DNA of 19,720 nucleotides. Source: a virus. The notes beneath the pieces were generated by a model. That model saw only the letters and a list, made by a program, of their open reading frames with translations. It made no database searches and was not told the DNA's origin. Shown here piece after piece: positions 13,393 through 19,720 of the stretch; within the stretch, counting starts at the first letter, position 1, and each line of letters opens with the position of its first letter. The stretch lies in UHGV virus genome UHGV-0194792, one strand, 5' to 3'. The position numbers and the translations under genes are program-made.

Positions 13393-13745
13393 TTAACAGC
13401 CTAACGCTAAAAATGAAGCGCCGAGGCCAGGAGTACTGGCTCTGGATATAAATTTAACCGGGTCGGGACTAAAACCTGCACAGGCAATATAACCAACAGC
13501 CCCGCTATCTGGTGTATAGTCTTGTGAGACCAAAACACGCAGACATCTGTTTGGAAATGCAATTGGGAAATGGGTTACTACATCCTGTGCAATGCCTGGA
13601 GCGCCGATTGAGCCCCACTGAAGAATAAAACCTGATGGTAATTTTTGATATCCAGTACCTGAAACAGAAAGCGTGAAGCTACCCATATCAGGTATCTGAT
13701 TCGCCCCTGTCCCTACATTCCTTTTAGCCGCTTCTCCCAAACCAA
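13393..13745 (-). CDS. promoterless alternative tail-fibre C-terminal cassette
   Basis: The minus-strand frame is continuous with the crossover site: after inversion, ...ENL of the constant part joins [13 protein letters not shown]... in frame. Contains an ILQWGS motif typical of fibre tips. The 13 codons upstream of the site in the track ORF are not expected to be translated. Confidence 0.65.
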
Positions 13746-13757
13746 CGTTTATGAAAA
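13732..13757. other. invertase crossover site, right (hix/gix-like: TTCTCCCAAACC AA CGTTTATGAAAA)
   Basis: Inverted copy of the left site with the same central dinucleotide on the opposite strand. Lies about 55 bp upstream of the invertase start. Confidence 0.7.
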
Positions 13758-13811
13758 TGCAGAAATAACGAGCAAATGGCATCATTCCTGCTTTTGTCAG
13801 GGGGATCTACC

Positions 13812-14366
13812 ATGCTTATTGGCTATGTACGCGTATCAACAAATGACCAGAACACAGATCTACAACGTAATGCGCTGAACTGTGCAGGATGCGAGCTGAT
13901 TTTTGAAGACAAGATAAGCGGCACAAAGTCCGAAAGGCCGGGACTGAAAAAACTGCTCAGGACATTATCGGCAGGTGACACTCTGGTTGTCTGGAAGCTG
14001 GATCGGCTGGGGCGTAGTATGCGGCATCTTGTCGTGTTGGTGGAGGAGTTGCGCGAACGAGGCATCAACTTTCGTAGTCTGACGGATTCAATTGATACCA
14101 GCACACCAATGGGGCGTTTTTTCTTTCATGTGATGGGTGCCCTGGCTGAAATGGAGCGTGAACTGATTGTTGAACGAACAAAAGCTGGACTGGAAGCTGC
14201 TCGCGCACAGGGACGAATTGGTGGACGTCGTCCCAAACTTACACCAGAACAATGGGCGCAGGCCGGACGATTAATTGCAGCAGGAATTCCTCGCCAGAAG
14301 GTGGCGATCATCTATGATGTTGGTGTATCGACACTGTATAAGAAGTTTCCGGTCGGAGATAAATGA
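13812..14366 (+). CDS. serine DNA invertase (Gin/Pin/Hin/Cin family)
   Basis: The N-terminus MLIGYVRVSTNDQNTDLQRNAL with catalytic Ser in VRVST, and blocks such as GDTLVVWKLDRLGRSM and MGRFFFHVMGALAEMERELI, match my recollection of Gin/Pin. ATG at 13812 with a GGGGGA RBS is preferred over the track start at 13776. A C-terminal helix-turn-helix region is present. Confidence 0.9.
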   Translation: MLIGYVRVSTNDQNTDLQRNALNCAGCELIFEDKISGTKSERPGLKKLLRTLSAGDTLVVWKLDRLGRSMRHLVVLVEELRERGINFRSLTDSIDTSTPMGRFFFHVMGALAEMERELIVERTKAGLEAARAQGRIGGRRPKLTPEQWAQAGRLIAAGIPRQKVAIIYDVGVSTLYKKFPVGDK

Positions 14367-14541
14367 AACCGCAGGCTCGTCGTATGCAAGAAAGTGCTGC
14401 GGCTGGCTGGCCAGCTTCTGATAGTGCGAATATTGAATGATTTCCAGCCGTTATCGATTTTACATATTTTTGTATGAGAGGATTTTTACCTCCTCCCACC
14501 TATCCTCCATGACTTTACGCCACTGTCTCTAGGGCTGCTAT

Positions 14542-14556
14542 GTGCCAGAAGCGGAC
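14542..14556 (+). repeat. direct repeat copy 1 (GTGCCAGAAGCGGAC; extended imperfect match about 14531-14570)
   Basis: 15-bp perfect core read directly. The second copy is at 15595-15609. The two copies bracket the HEPN-like gene. Confidence 0.6.
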
Positions 14557-14604
14557 TTCATTAGATTCTTTGTTTTTTGTGTTAATATACTTACAATCCC
14601 ATCA

Positions 14605-15420
14605 TCAACTAACAACCCAATCATCAGATAATATATCACTGATATTGAAAATATAGGTATGGTTATTTTTACCATCTGAAATGACGATTTTTTTTAAGTT
14701 GAATCTTTCTGATATGATATGCGTTGCAAATTGTGGGATTATTAAAAACAAAGCCTCTACCTTACTGATTAATTCAATGTTGACTTTAGGTCTGAAGTTT
14801 GCATCATGAACCACTTTGTGCCTAATGTAAAATGCTTCCTCTATGAGGGCTCTCCAGTCTGGAAATATATTTTCTATCGATAAATCTTGGGAAATTTGGC
14901 CACTCAGACCGCAAGGAGATATATTAGTTGTACATATGTAGTTTAAAAAACTCTCACCCCACATGCCATTATATGCTTCTTCAAGGTCGTTTAAGTTTTG
15001 AAAGTTAAAGCTTTTACTCAATAACTCTGATAGATTTATCTCAGTGTTTATATTGATAGATGTTTCTGTTCTCATTTTAGATAGTAGTGTTGTAATTCTA
15101 GATTCATCAACTGAATGCACGAAAACAAAAACGTCTCTAAAATATGTTTCCCAGCAACTGATTAGAAATACAAAATATTGTCGATATGCTGTTTTATAAA
15201 TATCTATTTTCTTATCTTTCGTTGAAATAAGTGAATGCATAAGTCGACAATTTTCTGCAAAATTTAGTAGGAAAGACATTGAGAAGTCTTCTATAGCTCC
15301 TCTTGATTCGCGAAGAGATAGCAATTCATCAATAATTTTTTTATTGATTTTCCTAATCTTTTTCAATTGCATGCCTCGTTTTTGCTTAAGTAAAGTTGAT
15401 TTTGGAGTTTCGTCAATCAT
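14605..15420 (-). CDS. hypothetical protein with R-x4-H (HEPN-like) motif; possible Abi-type effector
   Basis: 271-aa ORF in a visibly AT-rich segment, rich in Lys/Ile/Asn. Motif RHKVVH at about residue 205 fits the HEPN signature R-[NHQ]-x3-H. The start is uncertain: 15420 has a weak RBS, and an alternative ATG is at 15372. Confidence 0.5.
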   Translation of the reverse strand: MIDETPKSTLLKQKRGMQLKKIRKINKKIIDELLSLRESRGAIEDFSMSFLLNFAENCRLMHSLISTKDKKIDIYKTAYRQYFVFLISCWETYFRDVFVFVHSVDESRITTLLSKMRTETSININTEINLSELLSKSFNFQNLNDLEEAYNGMWGESFLNYICTTNISPCGLSGQISQDLSIENIFPDWRALIEEAFYIRHKVVHDANFRPKVNIELISKVEALFLIIPQFATHIISERFNLKKIVISDGKNNHTYIFNISDILSDDWVVS

Positions 15421-15594
15421 GTTATCTTATTAGATTTAAAGATAAAGTAACTTTTTGCATAAGCTTTGCGACAAAGATAGCTTTAATGAAAGGCCTTATA
15501 GAGCTACTTGGCCATAAAAATTTTTACGATGAATTCGAATTCAGCGTCCGCTCCTCGCTTAAAGCTGTCCTTGGGCCTAACCTACGATAGCTTC

Positions 15595-15609
15595 GTGCCA
15601 GAAGCGGAC
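15595..15609 (+). repeat. direct repeat copy 2 (GTGCCAGAAGCGGAC)
   Basis: Identical 15-mer to 14542-14556. Flanking bases are partly conserved (GCTnnGTGCCAGAAGCGGAC...TAnGAT). Confidence 0.6.
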
Positions 15610-15896
15610 ATTACTAAGATAGTAACGTATCAAACGGTGGGACAAGTCATGCCAAGTGCGGAAGTGGCTAACAACCATCTGTGTTGTTTAACGGGGAACA
15701 GGTCATTCCATTGACCCGATCATTTATGTTGCGCTGACGCTTAGGTGATAAAAAGCCGCCTATGCCCGTCTATCTTTGGGGATCCGCAATGAAGTTGATT
15801 GTGAGGTTATTAGGCTGGGTCTTCTCATTTATAAGTTGTTGAAGTAGCAACGAATTATCGAGCGATTTATCCCGATTAAATGTCTCACTATTACTC

Positions 15897-17021
15897 TTAA
15901 TCGGTAAATTCATAGTTTGGCCGCATTGAGAAACGCCACAGAGGCAGGCCTCCCCCTTTGTAATCATCAGGGATGGTTACCGTGAAAAGTCTGACATTCT
16001 GCCGGGTGTCAACTGACCTGATCTGGCTGTCGTGTACAGTCTGCTCGTTAAAGGCCGACGTGACCAGCGAACTCAGCGTACCTATAAAGTCGAAACCCTG
16101 TCTTTTGTAATTTTCGTCGTCTTCCGGGGAAAATGTGTATCGGATGCTCTCAAGCTGACCATCAGTGAATATTGCCTCCGATCCGGGGCAGAGCCACTCT
16201 CCGTAGCGCATCAGATGAAACGCCGTGTTCATTTCAAATTTATCCGTTACTTGTCTGTCATTGCAGTAAATTTTAATCTCGCCAATTGTAAAATGGGCGA
16301 TGCCTTCGGGACTAACTGAAACTTCTTTGGTCCGGTCGGGGATAAGCTCAAAAACCAGATCGGGTTCTGTTGCTATCGATAGGTCGCCCAGCAGGTACAT
16401 CTCACTTTTTGCGAGCGCCGAGGCCTGCGTCAAGGTATGTTCACGCTCTAGCTCCTTCATTGAGGAGCGTGCAACCAGCGCCCACCGGCGCAGCATCCTG
16501 ATGTAGATGGCATAATAAACTGGAATACCATGGAGCTCACCGTACTTTTCAACCTTATCACTGTACGATTTCTTCAGGCGATAATCGTCAGCCACGTCAT
16601 CCGCGTTAAAGTTTTTTACTTCCACAAAGATCTGACGGCGATCCTTCAGTATAATGCGATAGTCAGGTGCCACCAGATCGGGATCGGCTGACATCAAGTC
16701 TCCGGCGTCTTCCTGTTTAAGAAACTGGCAGTGGTTCAGTGCGGCGCAAACGTGTTTAAATAGGTTTTCTATTCTTTTCCCGTTCAGCAGAATTGGATTC
16801 TGATGGGAAGCGATTAATGACGTGGTGACCTTTTGTATAAAGTCATCCTGGTGCTCGGGGTTTTTAATATCGTAATTATAGATCTGGCCCAACGAGGAAA
16901 AAAGCTCAAAGGCTTCAAATCGTTCGGGATTCCTCTTGATTCTTTCCATTAATGACTCCGCAGCTAATAAATACAACGAAATGAGATCACTTGTTTCTCT
17001 GAAGTTACCTGAAAACTGCAT
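15897..17021 (-). CDS. hypothetical protein with PD-(D/E)xK nuclease-like motif
   Basis: 374-aa ORF. The segment APDYRIILKDRRQIFVEVK carries PD followed 13 residues later by E-V-K, as in restriction-endonuclease-fold active sites. It lies 70 bp downstream of and co-directional with the FRG-like gene. Confidence 0.5.
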   Translation of the reverse strand: MQFSGNFRETSDLISLYLLAAESLMERIKRNPERFEAFELFSSLGQIYNYDIKNPEHQDDFIQKVTTSLIASHQNPILLNGKRIENLFKHVCAALNHCQFLKQEDAGDLMSADPDLVAPDYRIILKDRRQIFVEVKNFNADDVADDYRLKKSYSDKVEKYGELHGIPVYYAIYIRMLRRWALVARSSMKELEREHTLTQASALAKSEMYLLGDLSIATEPDLVFELIPDRTKEVSVSPEGIAHFTIGEIKIYCNDRQVTDKFEMNTAFHLMRYGEWLCPGSEAIFTDGQLESIRYTFSPEDDENYKRQGFDFIGTLSSLVTSAFNEQTVHDSQIRSVDTRQNVRLFTVTIPDDYKGGGLPLWRFSMRPNYEFTD

Positions 17022-17090
17022 TCTGCACGGCGATTAAAGCGGCTATGGGCCCACGCTGGCACACAGGCGTGCCGTGCGACTAAAGCGCTA

Positions 17091-18461
17091 TCAGATTCGT
17101 CCATCGTATAGTTTTGCAATTTCCGTAGCAGCCTTCTCAATGCCGGGGTACACCGTGCTTTCGTTAATGCCAAGGCGGCTCAGTTGCTGCATCAGATGCT
17201 CTTTGTTTCTAATAACAAGCTTTTTGATGTTCAGCGTACTGAGTCCCGTTTCCGGTAGGTCTACGTTTTCACCAAAGAGCAGGAAAGCGCCTGATTGGGA
17301 CGAAATACGTGCGTTACTGAGCCGACCTTTGACCACAACAATTTTACTTAGGTGGACCGGATCGATGATGCTTTTGAAATAGGACTTTTCATCGCGGATC
17401 AGGTGTAGTAGTTGTCCGCACTCTTCAGATTCGTTAAACGCCGGAATGGTGAGATTAGTTTTCAGGCTGCTTTTGAAACGAGAGGGAAGACGGGAAAGAT
17501 TGGCTATGCAACTTACGGTATCCGAGTCGAAAAACTTAATTTCACTTTTGGGCGTCGTCAGAATAATGACGTTCCCGTCAATTTCATGATTATTTTCATC
17601 GTGCTTGATTTTAGAGCAGGCAAAATATAGTGCGATCAAGGGGTTTGTTGATACATCAAGCAGGCGTGTGGGTAGGCCATAGTGTTGCATGCGCACGAGT
17701 TTATCTAGCATATACCGATCGTCTTTGAACTCGGCGGGCTGCACGGTCAGCAGCTCTGTTATCATGTCCGATTCGTGATGGCGGTAGCGATAGTTACCCT
17801 GAGTATCCTTGCGGAACAGTGAGGGTTCCAGTTGGTAGTTGATGTCCGAGTGACCGCGGTAAAATACCTCTTCATCGTTTCCCTGTGTATGATCGAGTAT
17901 CACCTGCAAGTACTGATTGATATTCGCAATGATCTCTAGTTCTTCATTATTCTCCGGTGCTTCCGCACTCGCTGCTGCGGGCTCAACATTAGAATAGCCT
18001 TCAAGGCCTAAAACACGCAGAATCTCATTTACGGAAATCTCTTTGACCGCCCAGAACGTTCTGTTTAGTCCGAAACTGCCCAGCTCCAGCTCACTTACGT
18101 ACTCTTTATCGCTGGTTAAAGGCTTGTAGCCGATATCACTGGTAATCTCATAATCAAACGCTAAAACTTTTTCTCTGTTATACACGGACGTACTTATCTT
18201 GCTGATTTTTCCTAAGCGGATGTGGCTGAAATAACCTATTTTTTCATTATCTTCATCGAATTCAATTTCCGGCTCGGACATAAATACAACGGGCAGTTCC
18301 TGAAGAAAATGATAGGTTTTTTCAGTCAGGGGAAGCAATCTGCTTCTAAGAGACTCTGGCGTGGATTCGAAGAGTCGCGACACAGGGAAAGAGTCATTGC
18401 CACTGGGTTCAGAAAAAAAAGTGTAGTATTTGGGGGTTCCGACAACGATAAGATTCAGCAT
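17091..18461 (-). CDS. FRG-domain-like protein with N- and C-terminal extensions
   Basis: 456-aa ORF with GAGGA RBS 8 nt upstream. Central blocks FYRGHSDINYQLEPSLFR and QHYGLPTRLLDVSTNPLIALYFA match my recollection of the Pfam FRG-domain signature. About 185 residues precede the domain. Confidence 0.55.
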   Translation of the reverse strand: MLNLIVVGTPKYYTFFSEPSGNDSFPVSRLFESTPESLRSRLLPLTEKTYHFLQELPVVFMSEPEIEFDEDNEKIGYFSHIRLGKISKISTSVYNREKVLAFDYEITSDIGYKPLTSDKEYVSELELGSFGLNRTFWAVKEISVNEILRVLGLEGYSNVEPAAASAEAPENNEELEIIANINQYLQVILDHTQGNDEEVFYRGHSDINYQLEPSLFRKDTQGNYRYRHHESDMITELLTVQPAEFKDDRYMLDKLVRMQHYGLPTRLLDVSTNPLIALYFACSKIKHDENNHEIDGNVIILTTPKSEIKFFDSDTVSCIANLSRLPSRFKSSLKTNLTIPAFNESEECGQLLHLIRDEKSYFKSIIDPVHLSKIVVVKGRLSNARISSQSGAFLLFGENVDLPETGLSTLNIKKLVIRNKEHLMQQLSRLGINESTVYPGIEKAATEIAKLYDGRI

Positions 18462-19000
18462 ACTTGCGATCCTCGCATAAGTTAAGTTTCTCTCTCATCA
18501 TGCCAGACTTGATAATTATTTAAACATCAGCGCTGCTATTTATATTTCACACCTTTTTGAGCCGAAACGACACTGCCATCGGTAAGCCCGGATGATACAT
18601 TCTGAAAATTCATCAGAAAAATTTACATCACGCTTTACTCCTGACGTATATCAGCACTAACGTGCCATTGCGCACGCGCTAGCTATTTAGTAGCGCGTTT
18701 CGGCGAAAAGAGATTCGGTAGTCAATGACTATATTTCGCTCATAACAGACATTCACTACAGTTGTGGCAGAAAGGTATGCATGCTGGGTGTGGGGAAGTC
18801 GTGAAAGAAAAGAAGACTGCAGTGCCGTTTGTCGTTACGTTTATCTTCATTGGCTATGCAAGTCGTAATACAAGGTGGGACAAAACTGAGACATATAAGG
18901 CCTCGCAATGGCTTGCAAGGCTTTACATGTTTTGATGTGGTGGGACGTGTGAGCGCAGTGTTGATGGGGTAATGCTTTGAATTAGAAGCGGATTCTTATA

Positions 19001-19046
19001 ATTCGTAATGCGAAGGTCGTAGGTTCGACTCCTATTATCGGCACCA
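19001..19046 (+). other. thrW: prophage attachment-site repeat (attR): 3' 46 nt of a tRNA-Thr gene, including T-arm and CCA end
   Basis: ATTCGTAATGCGAAGGTCGTAGGTTCGACTCCTATTATCGGCACCA matches the 3' part of E. coli tRNA-Thr (CGU) as I recall it, with a canonical GGTTCGACTCC T-arm. No matching 5' half is present upstream, so this is a partial copy and not a gene. Confidence 0.65.
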
Positions 19047-19643
19047 TTTAAATCAATAAGTTATCTCACATTTAAGTAAACTACGTTCTCCTCTTGTGCC
19101 TTTGATTTTGCTCGCGTGCGCGGTGAAATGCCTGACTGAAAGGTGAGCATATCGACGAACCATTTCGAGAGTTTCCCATCTGCTCATTTTTAAGTGCAAG
19201 CAGGAAAACACCGGACTAAACCAATCAGCTGTTCGAAAATGGCAAGCGGATTAATATGCCATGGCGGGGCAGCTTTGAGCCGCACGCATGGGGTGTGGCA
19301 AGCCTGATGGATTTTGCTGTGCCTGTGGTGGCGTGTTTGCTGGTTTGGCTGTTGGTTAAACGCGAAAGTCATAATGCCAGGGGAATACCGCAGGGTGTTC
19401 AGGTTTTGCATAAAAAAGCCCACCATTAAGGTGGGCAAAAGGAATGATTTATATTCTCTGAGAGAAACATTACATTTCTCCTTGTCACTTCTAACATAAA
19501 AATATGGAGAAATAATGGAGCTTATATTAATTGGCGATTAGGTAACCATGTGGTTATACAAAACAATACAGTTCTTTACATTTGCCTTGTTTTATGAATA
19601 CTCCTGAAGAGGTGTACAACATAATTAAACAAACAGGGTAAAT

Positions 19644-19720
19644 ATGAATATATTTGAACAAACTCCACCGAACCGCAGACGTTATGGTCTTGCTGCATTC
19701 ATTGGGCTGATTGCTGGCGT
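19644..19720 (+). CDS. yagU: chromosomal flank: N-terminus of a YagU-like inner membrane protein (3' end outside window)
   Basis: [25 protein letters not shown] matches my recollection of the E. coli YagU N-terminus. AGGG RBS upstream. The partial ORF runs off the window end. Confidence 0.45.

Follow-up and report, generated by a model that had tools for sequence, protein, structure and literature searches.

A first-pass annotation of the 19,720-nucleotide stretch of viral DNA analysed here (genome UHGV-0194792; the window) reported a perfect 15-bp direct repeat on either side of one HEPN-like gene and read it as the borders of a cassette. This raises the question of whether the two copies were made by the arrival of that gene or belong to something more general that delimits exchangeable DNA. 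Defence 'hotspots' at prophage ends and in islands turn over fast, and what delimits and exchanges their cargo is largely unexplained.

The repeat pair and the two units of the window

The + strand carries exact copies of the repeat, GTGCCAGAAGCGGAC, at 14542-14556 and 15595-15609, as had been reported, and no third copy was found within the whole window with two mismatches allowed. A chance origin is ruled out (0.01 matches expected; at least two copies in 0 of 200 dinucleotide shuffles). The partial conservation claimed for the flanks also holds, with 14537-14563 and 15590-15616 aligning without gaps over 27 nt at 81% identity. This likeness is a likeness to the consensus of a palindrome family, GCTTTGTGCCAGAAGCGGACRTTGCTA; each copy is at least as near to that consensus as to the other copy. 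The 15-mers are the best-kept halves (loop and 3' arm) of two copies of this palindrome. A weak third 'copy' of 20 nt (18973-18992), which adjoins a tRNA-like att fragment, was rejected as it falls below the threshold of the covariance model.

The window represents the right end of an e14-like prophage, in which two units lie between the pinE backbone and attR (Table 1). In lambdoid prophages the backbone segment that precedes them likewise accompanies the A-B-C module, on the downstream side of tfa, with homology that starts at 14366 or 14397. Copy 1 consists of a degenerate 5' arm, GGCTGCT (14533-14539), the loop ATGTGCCAGA and an intact 3' arm, AGCGGAC (14550-14556); a homologous site is found in all of the pinE-type loci (L003-L007), the sequences of which diverge after it. 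In copy 2 the 5' arm has decayed to GATAGCT, and the intact loop and 3' arm constitute the second 15-mer. Both copies are decayed and may be relics rather than active sites.

Gene A is the sole real gene between the 15-mers, in agreement with the first-pass annotation, which nevertheless overlooked the decayed class 2 palindrome that closes unit 1 on the right. This palindrome is the first half of an inter-unit doublet with a class 2 to class 1 spacing of 40 nt start-to-start (39-42 nt in the family), and in the predicted fold of 15540-15660 the outer arms of this doublet (15546-15552 and 15603-15609) pair together. A better-kept class 2 copy, TTCCGCT-CTTCGCTCAT-AGCTGTC, is found at position 1136 of a metagenome contig (L305). 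Unit 2 closes on the right with a class 2 remnant, AATGACTATATTTCGCTCATAACAGACATT (18724-18753), in which direct reading shows 22 of 30 positions to agree with the class 2 consensus; the class 1 remnant TTGTGGCAGAAAGGTA (18762-18777) follows it. The class 1 copies sit 3' of genes A and B, on the sense strand of those genes. Gene A, a 'hypothetical protein' in RefSeq, scores just below the cut-off for Pfam PF18735 (26.4 against 28.4 bits), and its homologues have precomputed PF18735 matches. No integrase or transposase lies between the 15-mers, where the HEPN-like gene stands alone, and near the array RefSeq gives only pinE (a serine invertase) and an integrase fragment beyond attR as recombinase-type genes.

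Table 1. Features of the two units and of the adjoining backbone (window coordinates).
Feature	Position	Strand	Evidence
Backbone or 'linker', non-coding DNA from the pinE stop to the first palindrome	14366-14529	+	~90% identity, ~960 E. coli genomes
Copy 1 of the class 1 palindrome; opens the cargo array on the left	14530-14562	+	Covariance model R1, 37.2 bits, E 1e-7
Gene A, RiboL-PSP HEPN-like, 271 aa; sole gene of unit 1	14605-15420	-	GC ~30%
Decayed class 2 palindrome, GTCCGCT-CCTCGCTTAA-AGCTGTC; right end of unit 1	15546-15569	+	Regular-expression hairpin finder in L306
Copy 2 of the class 1 palindrome; opens unit 2 on the left	15583-15615	+	Covariance model R1, 23.1 bits, E 7e-4
Sub-terminal boxes ACGGTGGGACAAGTCA (15634-15649), GCTAACA (15667-15673) and ACGGGGAACAGGTCA (15691-15705)	15634-15705	+	Match to RTTGCTAACA-N~20-ACGGGGAGCAGGTCA
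Gene B, unit 2 (15897-18461)	15897-17021	-	No family match; RefSeq, 350 aa
Gene C, FRG domain, unit 2 (15897-18461)	17091-18461	-	Pfam FRG, E 4.7e-22; PADLOC PDC-S15, E 8e-99
Decayed terminal doublet; right end of unit 2	18724-18777	+	Below covariance-model threshold

The palindrome family and its arrangement

Class 1 of the family is a palindrome of ~27 nt, AAYGTCCGCT-TTGTGCCAGA-AGCGGACRTT; class 2 is a sister palindrome with the same stem and the loop TTTCGCTCAT. The 32-mer consensus folds to a strong hairpin (-11.2 kcal/mol, z -5.8) and intact doublets fold as two hairpins (z -3.2 to -6.7). The window copies alone fold, as DNA, no better than shuffles (z -0.16 and -1.11); the earlier description of the repeat as 'not an obvious hairpin' is therefore accurate for these two copies but not for the family. 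In the model alignment 86.7% of cells pair, compared with 39-50% in slid controls. Covariation is modest: among 723 family members the stem deviations are mostly one-sided and unpaired (154 of 250), and 16 of 22 double-sided changes keep the pair by a leave-one-pair-out count. This count was used in place of a loop-anchored one, which was dropped because chance 8-mer matches contaminate it. A MAFFT alignment of the full flanks of 59 contexts was uninformative because the core alone aligns, and was replaced by an anchored analysis.

The 32-nt consensus query matched 5,275 places, 199 of them on plasmids, in 3,723 of 5,426 complete E. coli genomes, with 1-6 matching places per genome (median 1). 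In the E. coli loci that were examined the palindromes lie in prophage, island and plasmid cargo regions, and one of the consensus matches falls between relB and flxA of the Qin prophage of K-12. The search for the 15-mer in other genomes that the first-pass annotation had proposed showed it to be widespread, with different cargo between class 1 copies and class 2: the exact 15-mer, within a hairpin context of its own, occurs in over 120 viral loci and over 120 genomic loci. Exact motifs served to seed the IMG/VR and GTDB samples, the counts from which hold among the matches listed; about two thirds of the IMG/VR 15-mer matches listed have hairpin context. Covariance model R1 found further copies in the cargo regions of related loci. 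The palindromes are extragenic, with only three of 163 unique copies in an ORF of at least 120 aa although the six-frame coverage by such ORFs is 69% of bases (p = 2e-77).

An intrinsic terminator and a known RNA family were both considered as identities for the palindrome and rejected, as there is no T-tract or terminator-like site in 14200-16000 and no Rfam match at E up to 1 in 13500-19720. Promoter predictions in the window region were not above those in shuffles, and a tRNA scan of the window returned no tRNA. Literature searches by sequence and by concept found no relevant description of the palindrome or of the cassette arrangement.

The palindromes separate accessory-gene units, mostly of anti-phage defence, at the ends of temperate phages, in tRNA islands and on plasmids of Enterobacterales. 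In the fetched loci the order is class 1, 0.5-3 kb of cargo, class 2 (class 1 to class 2 intervals of 565-3102 nt; n = 30), and all 53 pairs of adjacent classified palindromes are co-oriented on the same strand. Neighbouring units are joined by doublets, nine of ten class 2 to class 1 intervals being 39-42 nt start-to-start. The 51 distinct units hold one to three genes each, mostly of low GC content; in the enterobacterial units, about as many genes point one way as the other with respect to the palindromes. The cargo includes retron RT, ThsB, DarTG, PD-T7-1/5, PDC-S35, GmrSD and several HEPN families; the border palindrome would offer a sequence handle for the automatic segmentation of cargo arrays, and it may help to find new defence genes because many units are without a known family. 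Some units bear longer terminal inverted repeats. In a subset of loci the motif RTTGCTAACA-N~20-ACGGGGAGCAGGTCA recurs after class 1 palindromes, and its reverse complement precedes class 2 palindromes. No recurrent recombinase or transposase was found in or beside the units: Pfam and PADLOC searches of 59 cargo proteins gave a single IS110 transposase, and none of the 51 units contains Y1_Tnp or TnpB.

The same stem and loop are found far from these elements. In 46 soil alphaproteobacterial loci there are 268 copies in 353 kb, or 0.76 per kb, a density that holds among the matches listed as the loci were picked for containing a copy. Here the palindromes, which include class 3/class 1 doublets, flank ordinary genes, mostly ABC_sub_bind, with a class 1 hairpin directly 3' of the ABC_sub_bind genes. 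The arrangement is therefore not specific to mobile cassettes. A transposase among the flanked alphaproteobacterial ORFs was considered and rejected, as these are ordinary genes, and no Y1 transposase was present among the 59 cargo proteins and 40 flanked ORFs. An exact 24-nt element recurs across phyla. Its presence in both E. coli mobile elements and soil alphaproteobacterial chromosomes is unexpected for a repeat of the REP type, families of which are normally species-specific, and needs explanation; the identity hints at a dedicated partner protein, for which simple short-homology recombination does not account.

Mosaic junctions and their explanation

Downstream of pinE, ~960 E. coli genomes share conserved DNA that reaches the end of copy 1 (query positions 257-269), beyond which the cargo differs; six different cargo sets follow copy 1 on the pinE backbone. 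Among the matches listed, nine pairs of IMG/VR contigs with a common left flank of a class 1 palindrome diverge 0-6 nt after the 15-mer and three pairs with a common right flank diverge 3-7 nt before it. One locus (L117) joins the left side of L018 to the right side of L013. For class 2, again among the matches listed, divergence begins 0-2 nt past the 16-mer in five of seven pairs with a common left flank, and 2-10 nt ahead of it in all eight with a common right flank. Contig L305 carries genes B and C without gene A, with other cargo in its place, and its homology to the window (15547-18750) extends from palindrome to palindrome, position 18750 being within the class 2 remnant.

Taken together, the pinE loci, the IMG/VR pairs and L305 bear out the claim that the repeats mark cassette borders and recombination joins. 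The limits of the proposed cassette need correction: its right limit is the class 2 palindrome, and copy 2 opens the next unit. An empty site with a single copy, which the first-pass annotation had proposed to look for in related prophages, was not found: a construct of the left flank, the 15-mer and the right flank of copy 2 gave no junction-spanning match in 5,426 E. coli genomes, and the right flank of copy 2 is present in 28 of these, all with gene A. K-12 e14 has no palindrome between pinE and mcrA. If gene A were excised, the circle junction would read TAGCTTC-GTGCCAGAAGCGGAC-TTCATTAG; if it were deleted between the repeats, the junction would read CTGCTAT-GTGCCAGAAGCGGAC-ATTACTAAG.

The reading that we prefer, and consider about equally likely to be right or wrong, is of a REP/BIME-like extragenic palindrome that would act as a portable crossover point between cargo units, because the same ~25-30 bp recurs at the unit borders of many unrelated elements. 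Recombination inside one palindrome, or a double crossover in two, would replace a unit and keep the architecture, and phage- or host-encoded homologous recombination on the short conserved homology would be the most economical agent. Sequence comparison establishes the family, its arrangement, the extragenic location and the match with mosaic junctions; from it we infer this mechanism and the cause of palindrome conservation. The conservation could possibly be maintained by a RAYT-type enzyme, a binding protein or a structural role in RNA or DNA. Against the REP reading, an E. coli genome has far fewer matching places than REP elements have copies, no RAYT is linked, and the identity of the 24-nt element across phyla would not be expected. 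An identical A-B-C array is found in one e14-like prophage and in three lambdoid contexts, having moved between the two kinds of phage along with the 145-175 nt that precede copy 1, and therefore the palindrome is not the sole crossover point. Pin was also considered as the agent; its known sites are the 26-bp pix/gix sites at the invertible segment, and from the lambdoid carriers of A-B-C, which have no adjoining pin gene, we infer that it is not.

An event private to gene A, whether a target-site duplication or attL/attR pair from its insertion or a chance repeat, would account for an exact direct repeat on both sides of a single low-GC gene, but it is scarcely credible: the family-wide distribution already refutes it, the pair being two members of a family with thousands of copies rather than a product of the insertion. 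The flanks resemble the family consensus rather than each other, and no mobility gene lies between the copies. The repeat is not intrinsic to gene A either, as homologues with 53-87% identity occur without palindromes in six other contexts, including P2-like prophages, an AT-rich island and Tn3-type contexts; for a repeat intrinsic to the gene, this is the outcome that the first-pass annotation had itself named as a refutation. An element with a function other than recombination is unlikely but more plausible than this. The palindrome, present with each cargo unit, would be a hairpin that stabilizes or processes RNA 3' ends, would insulate transcription or would bind a host protein such as gyrase, with mosaic junctions as a by-product of its conservation. 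REP elements stabilize upstream mRNA and bind gyrase and IHF, and the extragenic position, the REP-like abundance in Alphaproteobacteria 3' of ABC_sub_bind genes and the class 1 copies 3' of genes A and B in the window on the sense strand are all consistent with such a role. However, genes in either orientation argue against an RNA-level role tied to gene polarity, no T-tract, terminator-like site or Rfam match supports one, and the window copies have decayed while the genes are intact.

A dedicated site-specific or transposition system is a stronger competitor, although we regard it as rather improbable. Here the palindromes would be sites of a HUH transposase of the RAYT or IS200-IS605 type, or of a tyrosine recombinase with an 11-8-11 core, and the two loop or spacer classes would be heterospecific ends, a natural analogue of recombinase-mediated cassette exchange. 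The strict polarity and class order in all 53 pairs, the narrow doublet spacing, junctions inside the palindrome in both classes and the longer terminal inverted repeats of some units point in this direction, as does the layout AATGTCCGCTT-TGTGCCAG-AAGCGGACATT, which resembles tyrosine-recombinase core sites. The exact 24-nt element across phyla would be expected if a conserved protein reads it. The window copies keep only the core and right arm, as do the sfx sites of Rci (PMC4176322), but the sfx right arm matches at few positions. The cargo proteins include no recurrent recombinase or transposase, and near the array the only candidates are the integrase fragment and pinE, the known sites of which are different; the same arrangement surrounds ordinary alphaproteobacterial chromosomal genes, and the 5,426 E. 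coli genomes gave no evidence of an empty site, deletion junction or circle. Somewhat more doubtful still is the full form of this proposal, in which class 1 and class 2 would be heterospecific sites of one trans-acting enzyme (HUH/RAYT-like or tyrosine recombinase), forming a natural cassette-exchange system that moves defence and accessory genes among Enterobacterales phages, islands and plasmids, with the same enzyme family acting across phyla. Should such an enzyme exist, it would provide a new natural cassette-exchange tool. A palindrome that marks borders and junctions would also make the way in which unrelated mobile elements swap cassettes open to experiment.

Comparison with known systems

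The repeats do not behave as a target-site duplication or attL/attR pair, the 15-mer being found in hundreds of viral and genomic loci with no mobility gene between the window copies. Integron cassettes and attC sites (including CALIN) are similar in that structured imperfect palindromes divide arrays of one- or two-gene units, often of defence; part of the first site is backbone sequence (compare attI), and exchange breakpoints fall in the sites. However, the palindrome is conserved in sequence, whereas attC is conserved in structure only, and it has no R''/R' (RYYYAAC/GTTRRRY) organization, no IntI and genes in either orientation with their own expression signals. The palindrome is typically followed by GTTGCTA or ATTGCTA, which does not satisfy the RRR of the attC R' box, so that it does not qualify as an attC site, and the annotation of the surrounding 38 kb includes no integron integrase.

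Like the ends of IS200/IS605 elements and PATEs, two different but related sub-terminal hairpins on the same strand bound each unit, and the units are non-autonomous, without a transposase. They differ from these in that neither a Y1 transposase nor TnpB was found within or close to the units examined, in that no conserved cleavage tetranucleotide could be found, and in being tandem with fixed spacing. PeSL (promoter-early stem-loop) repeats, reportedly described by Arbiol, Comeau and Krisch, are said to flank single ORFs in hyperplastic regions of T4-type phages and are thought to drive modular shuffling via repeat recombination. Both systems place short conserved stem-loop-bearing repeats around cargo. 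PeSL combines an early promoter with a terminator-like stem-loop in lytic T4-like phages, whereas the palindromes have no consistent promoter or T-tract, fall into two loop classes and occur in temperate phages, islands and plasmids.

In a comparison with tyrosine-recombinase core sites the 11-8-11 geometry is compatible, the arms do not resemble those of dif, and the analysis identified no cognate recombinase. In the sfx sites of the Rci shufflon of IncI plasmids the core is GTGCCAA, and the right arm is conserved while the left arm varies (PMC4176322). The palindromes likewise have a conserved 7-bp core (GTGCCAG or GTGCCAA), with the right arm conserved and the left arm poorly so. The right arms are nevertheless unrelated (TCCGGTACGTGG in sfx, AAGCGGACATTG in the palindrome; 5 of 12 positions match), and sfx sites are inverted within the 3' segments of a gene and support inversion only; there is no rci gene here.

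The closest likeness is to REP, BIME and REPIN elements. These too are imperfect palindromes of ~25-30 nt, strictly extragenic, that occur as singlets and closely spaced doublets between genes, as in the class 2/class 1 doublets, and REPs are known to serve as recombination join-points. The palindrome is very abundant in the sampled alphaproteobacterial loci, chosen for a copy. Its sequence is unrelated to classical E. coli REP, no GTAG-type tetranucleotide (the REP-type 5' GT[AG]G) is evident in the consensus, and the E. coli loci examined place the copies within the cargo regions of prophages, islands and plasmids, not scattered through the core genome. In contrast to REP families, which are normally species-specific, the palindrome shares its stem and loop across phyla and sets two loop classes in a fixed order around each unit.

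Prophage setting of the repeat pair

Identical to DNA of E. coli ECONIH1, the window covers an e14-like prophage from its late region to its right end; the prophage has a Mu-type tail and carries ymfR, ymfQ and tfaE. The invertase gene pinE adjoins an invertible tail-fibre segment, which is ordinary for e14/Mu/P1-type phages, and is followed by three minus-strand cargo genes, A, B and C. Gene A scores 26.4 bits against the RiboL-PSP HEPN family, slightly under the Pfam cut-off of 28.4, and its homologues have precomputed PF18735 hits. Gene B (350-374 aa) is without a Pfam family match and its PADLOC match is negligible; gene C encodes an FRG domain and is a match to the PADLOC candidate system PDC-S15 (E 8e-99). 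Gene B accompanies this gene C in every locus seen and is possibly the partner gene of a candidate defence system. Past the cargo lie a tRNA-like att fragment, an integrase pseudogene and then yagU. The fragment resembles the 3' portion of a tRNA, running from anticodon loop to CCA, and is similar to thrW; ARAGORN called no tRNA in the window, and the fragment is probably an attR duplicate marking the prophage end.

The first-pass annotation described exact 15-bp direct repeats with partly conserved flanks, enclosing gene A alone, and each of these observations was borne out. The 15-mer GTGCCAGAAGCGGAC occurs on the plus strand at 14542-14556 (copy 1) and 15595-15609 (copy 2), with no further copy in the window when up to two mismatches are allowed. 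By chance 0.01 matches would be expected, and two copies arose in 0 of 200 dinucleotide shuffles. Ungapped likeness around the copies reaches 27 nt at 81%, and the single gene between them lies in a region of ~30% GC.

A dispersed palindrome family

IMG/VR was scanned with the exact 15-mer. About two thirds of the matches listed have the wider context ...GTCCGCTTT-GTGCCAG-AAGCGGAC-RTT..., a palindrome (class 1) of which the 15-mer is the loop and 3' arm; by anchored information content, only ~27 nt are common to all family members. Since the 15-mer belongs to a large family, a private duplication or att pair at this locus is excluded. A 32-nt consensus query matched 5,275 places (199 on plasmids) in 3,723 of 5,426 complete E. 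coli genomes, for example between relB and flxA of the K-12 Qin prophage, and in a tRNA island where a YeeP-like GTPase gene lies on one side and variable cargo on the other. The Qin class 1 palindrome (L128 3999-4031) is overlapped by the K-12 'gene' ydfV, possibly an ORF called in error across a non-coding element; another palindrome, whose loop is a variant, follows flxA (L128 4987-5022), and the pair encloses ydfV-flxA and adjoins relBE-hokD. A literature search of incomplete coverage found no description of this element.

The family consensus has a strong fold (-11.2 kcal/mol, z -5.8); owing to decay of their 5' arms, the window copies fold poorly (z -0.16 and -1.11). A covariance model trained on 53 instances recovered, in the window, the two known copies and no others; in related loci it found additional copies directly 3' of cargo genes. 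Pairing is kept in 86.7% of cells, compared with 39-50% in slid controls, and two-sided changes occur at five of nine pairs, a level matched by 13 of 500 shuffles. The 723 family members with a single deviating pair include 228 one-sided and 22 two-sided changes, 16 of the latter still paired. These sequence comparisons lend modest support to a constraint on the complementarity of the arms, which either a hairpin or a symmetric protein site would produce.

Cargo units and mosaic junctions

A sister palindrome (class 2) has the class 1 stem and the loop TTTCGCTCAT. In architecture counts made with a simple stem finder on the loci collected up to then, all 53 adjacent classified palindromes were co-oriented. 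Intervals from class 1 to class 2 (n = 30) span 565-3102 nt with cargo inside, and nine of ten intervals from class 2 to class 1 measure 39-42 nt. Cargo units therefore run class 1 - genes - class 2, and doublets join tandem units; arrays exist, such as five sites within 3 kb in L029. The palindromes are extragenic: three of 163 fall inside ORFs of at least 120 aa, which make up 69% of bases (p = 2e-77).

The 51 distinct units hold 1-3 genes each, in either orientation and mostly of low GC, and no recombinase recurs among their cargo. This includes a type IV retron RT with its 2TM partner, ThsB, DarTG, PD-T7-1, PD-T7-5, PDC-S35, GmrSD and three HEPN families, together with metabolic and transport genes. 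An IMG/VR unit (L170 1120-5957) holds an IS110-family transposase (DEDD_Tnp_IS110); IS110/IS1111 elements target REP or attC hairpins, and the L170 copy may be no cargo gene but an IS that inserted at the palindrome. The boxes after copy 2 match a motif, RTTGCTAACA-N~20-ACGGGGAGCAGGTCA, that other loci also have 3' of their class 1 palindromes, and whose reverse complement lies ahead of class 2 palindromes (L138, L143, L174); some units thus have ~70-bp terminal inverted repeats.

Features of the right end of the prophage, in window coordinates
Feature	Position	Remarks
Invertible tail-fibre segment	12928-13776	adjoins pinE; divergent tail-fibre C-terminal and assembly genes on minus strand
Invertase pinE	13812-14366	
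Class 1 palindrome, copy 1	14530-14562	then gene A
Gene A	14605-15420	minus strand
Decayed class 2 palindrome	15546-15569	GTCCGCT-CCTCGCTTAA-AGCTGTC; then 16-nt spacer
Class 1 palindrome, copy 2	15583-15615	then genes B and C
Boxes after copy 2	15634-15705	ACGGTGGGACAAGTCA and GCTAACA-N17-ACGGGGAACAGGTCA; also 18864-18883
Gene B	15897-17021	minus strand
Decayed terminal class 2 palindrome	18724-18753	22/30 consensus matches
Class 1 remnant	18762-18777	after terminal class 2; att fragment next
att fragment	19002-19046	TTCGTAATGCGAAGGTCGTAGGTTCGACTCCTATTATCGGCACCA
Integrase pseudogene	~19061-19215	then yagU

From the order of palindromes in the window, the repeats are the left ends of two successive units. 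The earlier proposal of a cassette boundary open to exchange holds in that homology breaks at the palindromes, although the copies are not two ends of one gene A cassette, each opening its own unit. In ~960 E. coli genomes the DNA after pinE keeps ~90% conservation until copy 1 ends (query positions 257-269), and past that point gives way to unrelated cargo (hypothetical proteins, an ATP-dependent nuclease, DUF4365, a 4-fold beta-flower protein). Among 59 unique IMG/VR contexts, nine pairs sharing a left flank part 0-6 nt past the 15-mer and three sharing a right flank part 3-7 nt ahead of it; L117 combines the left side of L018 with the right side of L013. Class 2 palindromes behave in the same way. 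The metagenome contig L305 has B-C, with A absent and different cargo upstream, and it is homologous to the window between 15547, among the first bases of the class 2 palindrome, and 18750, within the terminal one. Its gene B has a ~92-nt deletion relative to the window (16222-16312). Judged by these sequence breakpoints, the palindromes are mosaic junctions.

The identical A-B-C array with both repeats also occurs in phage PhiR11_1 and, at two chromosomal sites, in lambdoid prophages, where it occupies the right end; it has moved between phage types along with 145-175 nt left of copy 1. K-12 e14 has no palindrome downstream of pinE. The suggested single-copy empty site, or a deletion junction, was not found in 5,426 genomes; the right flank is present in 28, all with gene A. 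Relatives of gene A lacking the repeats, which the first-pass annotation would have counted against its reading, do exist: no palindromes accompany homologues in P2-like prophages, an AT-rich island or Tn3-type contexts. Those in P2-like prophages (53-56% identity; L134 6001-6780, L135 6001-6783) are solitary antisense genes with tail gene S on one side and baseplate gene V on the other, the position of P2 orf30, and show that gene A behaves as an independent moron in a further phage hotspot. Homologues of 78-87% identity lie in the AT-rich island or adjoin Tn3-type inverted repeats. The latter repeats, GGGGTCTGATGCTCAGTGGAACGAAAACTCAC, adjoin homologues of 81-87% identity (L309 1-80, L307 3250-3330), which suggests carriage by a Tn3-type transposon; ThsB_TIR and TIR genes also adjoin the L307 homologue.

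Proposed agents of exchange and comparison with known elements

GTDB species representatives were scanned with an exact 21-base pattern (chance expectation below one). Hosts among the matches listed include many Enterobacterales, soil Alphaproteobacteria (Pseudolabrys, Xanthobacteraceae, Methyloceanibacter), Acidobacteriota, Nitrosomonadaceae and others; distant phyla share one 24-nt element. The 46 alphaproteobacterial loci from these matches contain 268 same-stem palindromes (GTCCGCT/AGCGGAC; 0.76 per kb) with three loops, GTGCCA, GGGTCA and ACCCCC. They flank ordinary chromosomal genes, with ABC_sub_bind in 12 of 40 flanked ORFs and no transposase among these 40. The soil copies are in MAGs (within L185-L304, e.g. 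L212 6912-6996, L259, L277), where they often flank paralogous ABC_sub_bind (PF04392) genes.

In Enterobacterales, the palindromes punctuate the accessory-gene arrays of mobile elements and would act as a portable crossover point. Short-homology recombination at these conserved sequences is the most likely agent, a reading we hold with about as much doubt as confidence. That a dedicated enzyme recognises the two classes as heterospecific sites is somewhat unlikely; it is nevertheless a serious rival because of the strict polarity of the palindromes, the fixed doublet spacing and the cross-phylum identity of the element. A purely regulatory or structural role, with recombination incidental, is possible and rather improbable.

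The family is best filed as REP/BIME-like, and the alphaproteobacterial palindromes behave like REP elements in their density and their position beside ordinary genes. The core GTGCCA[A/G] and conserved right arm recall the sfx sites of Rci, although the arms of those sites are unlike the ones described here (PMC4176322).
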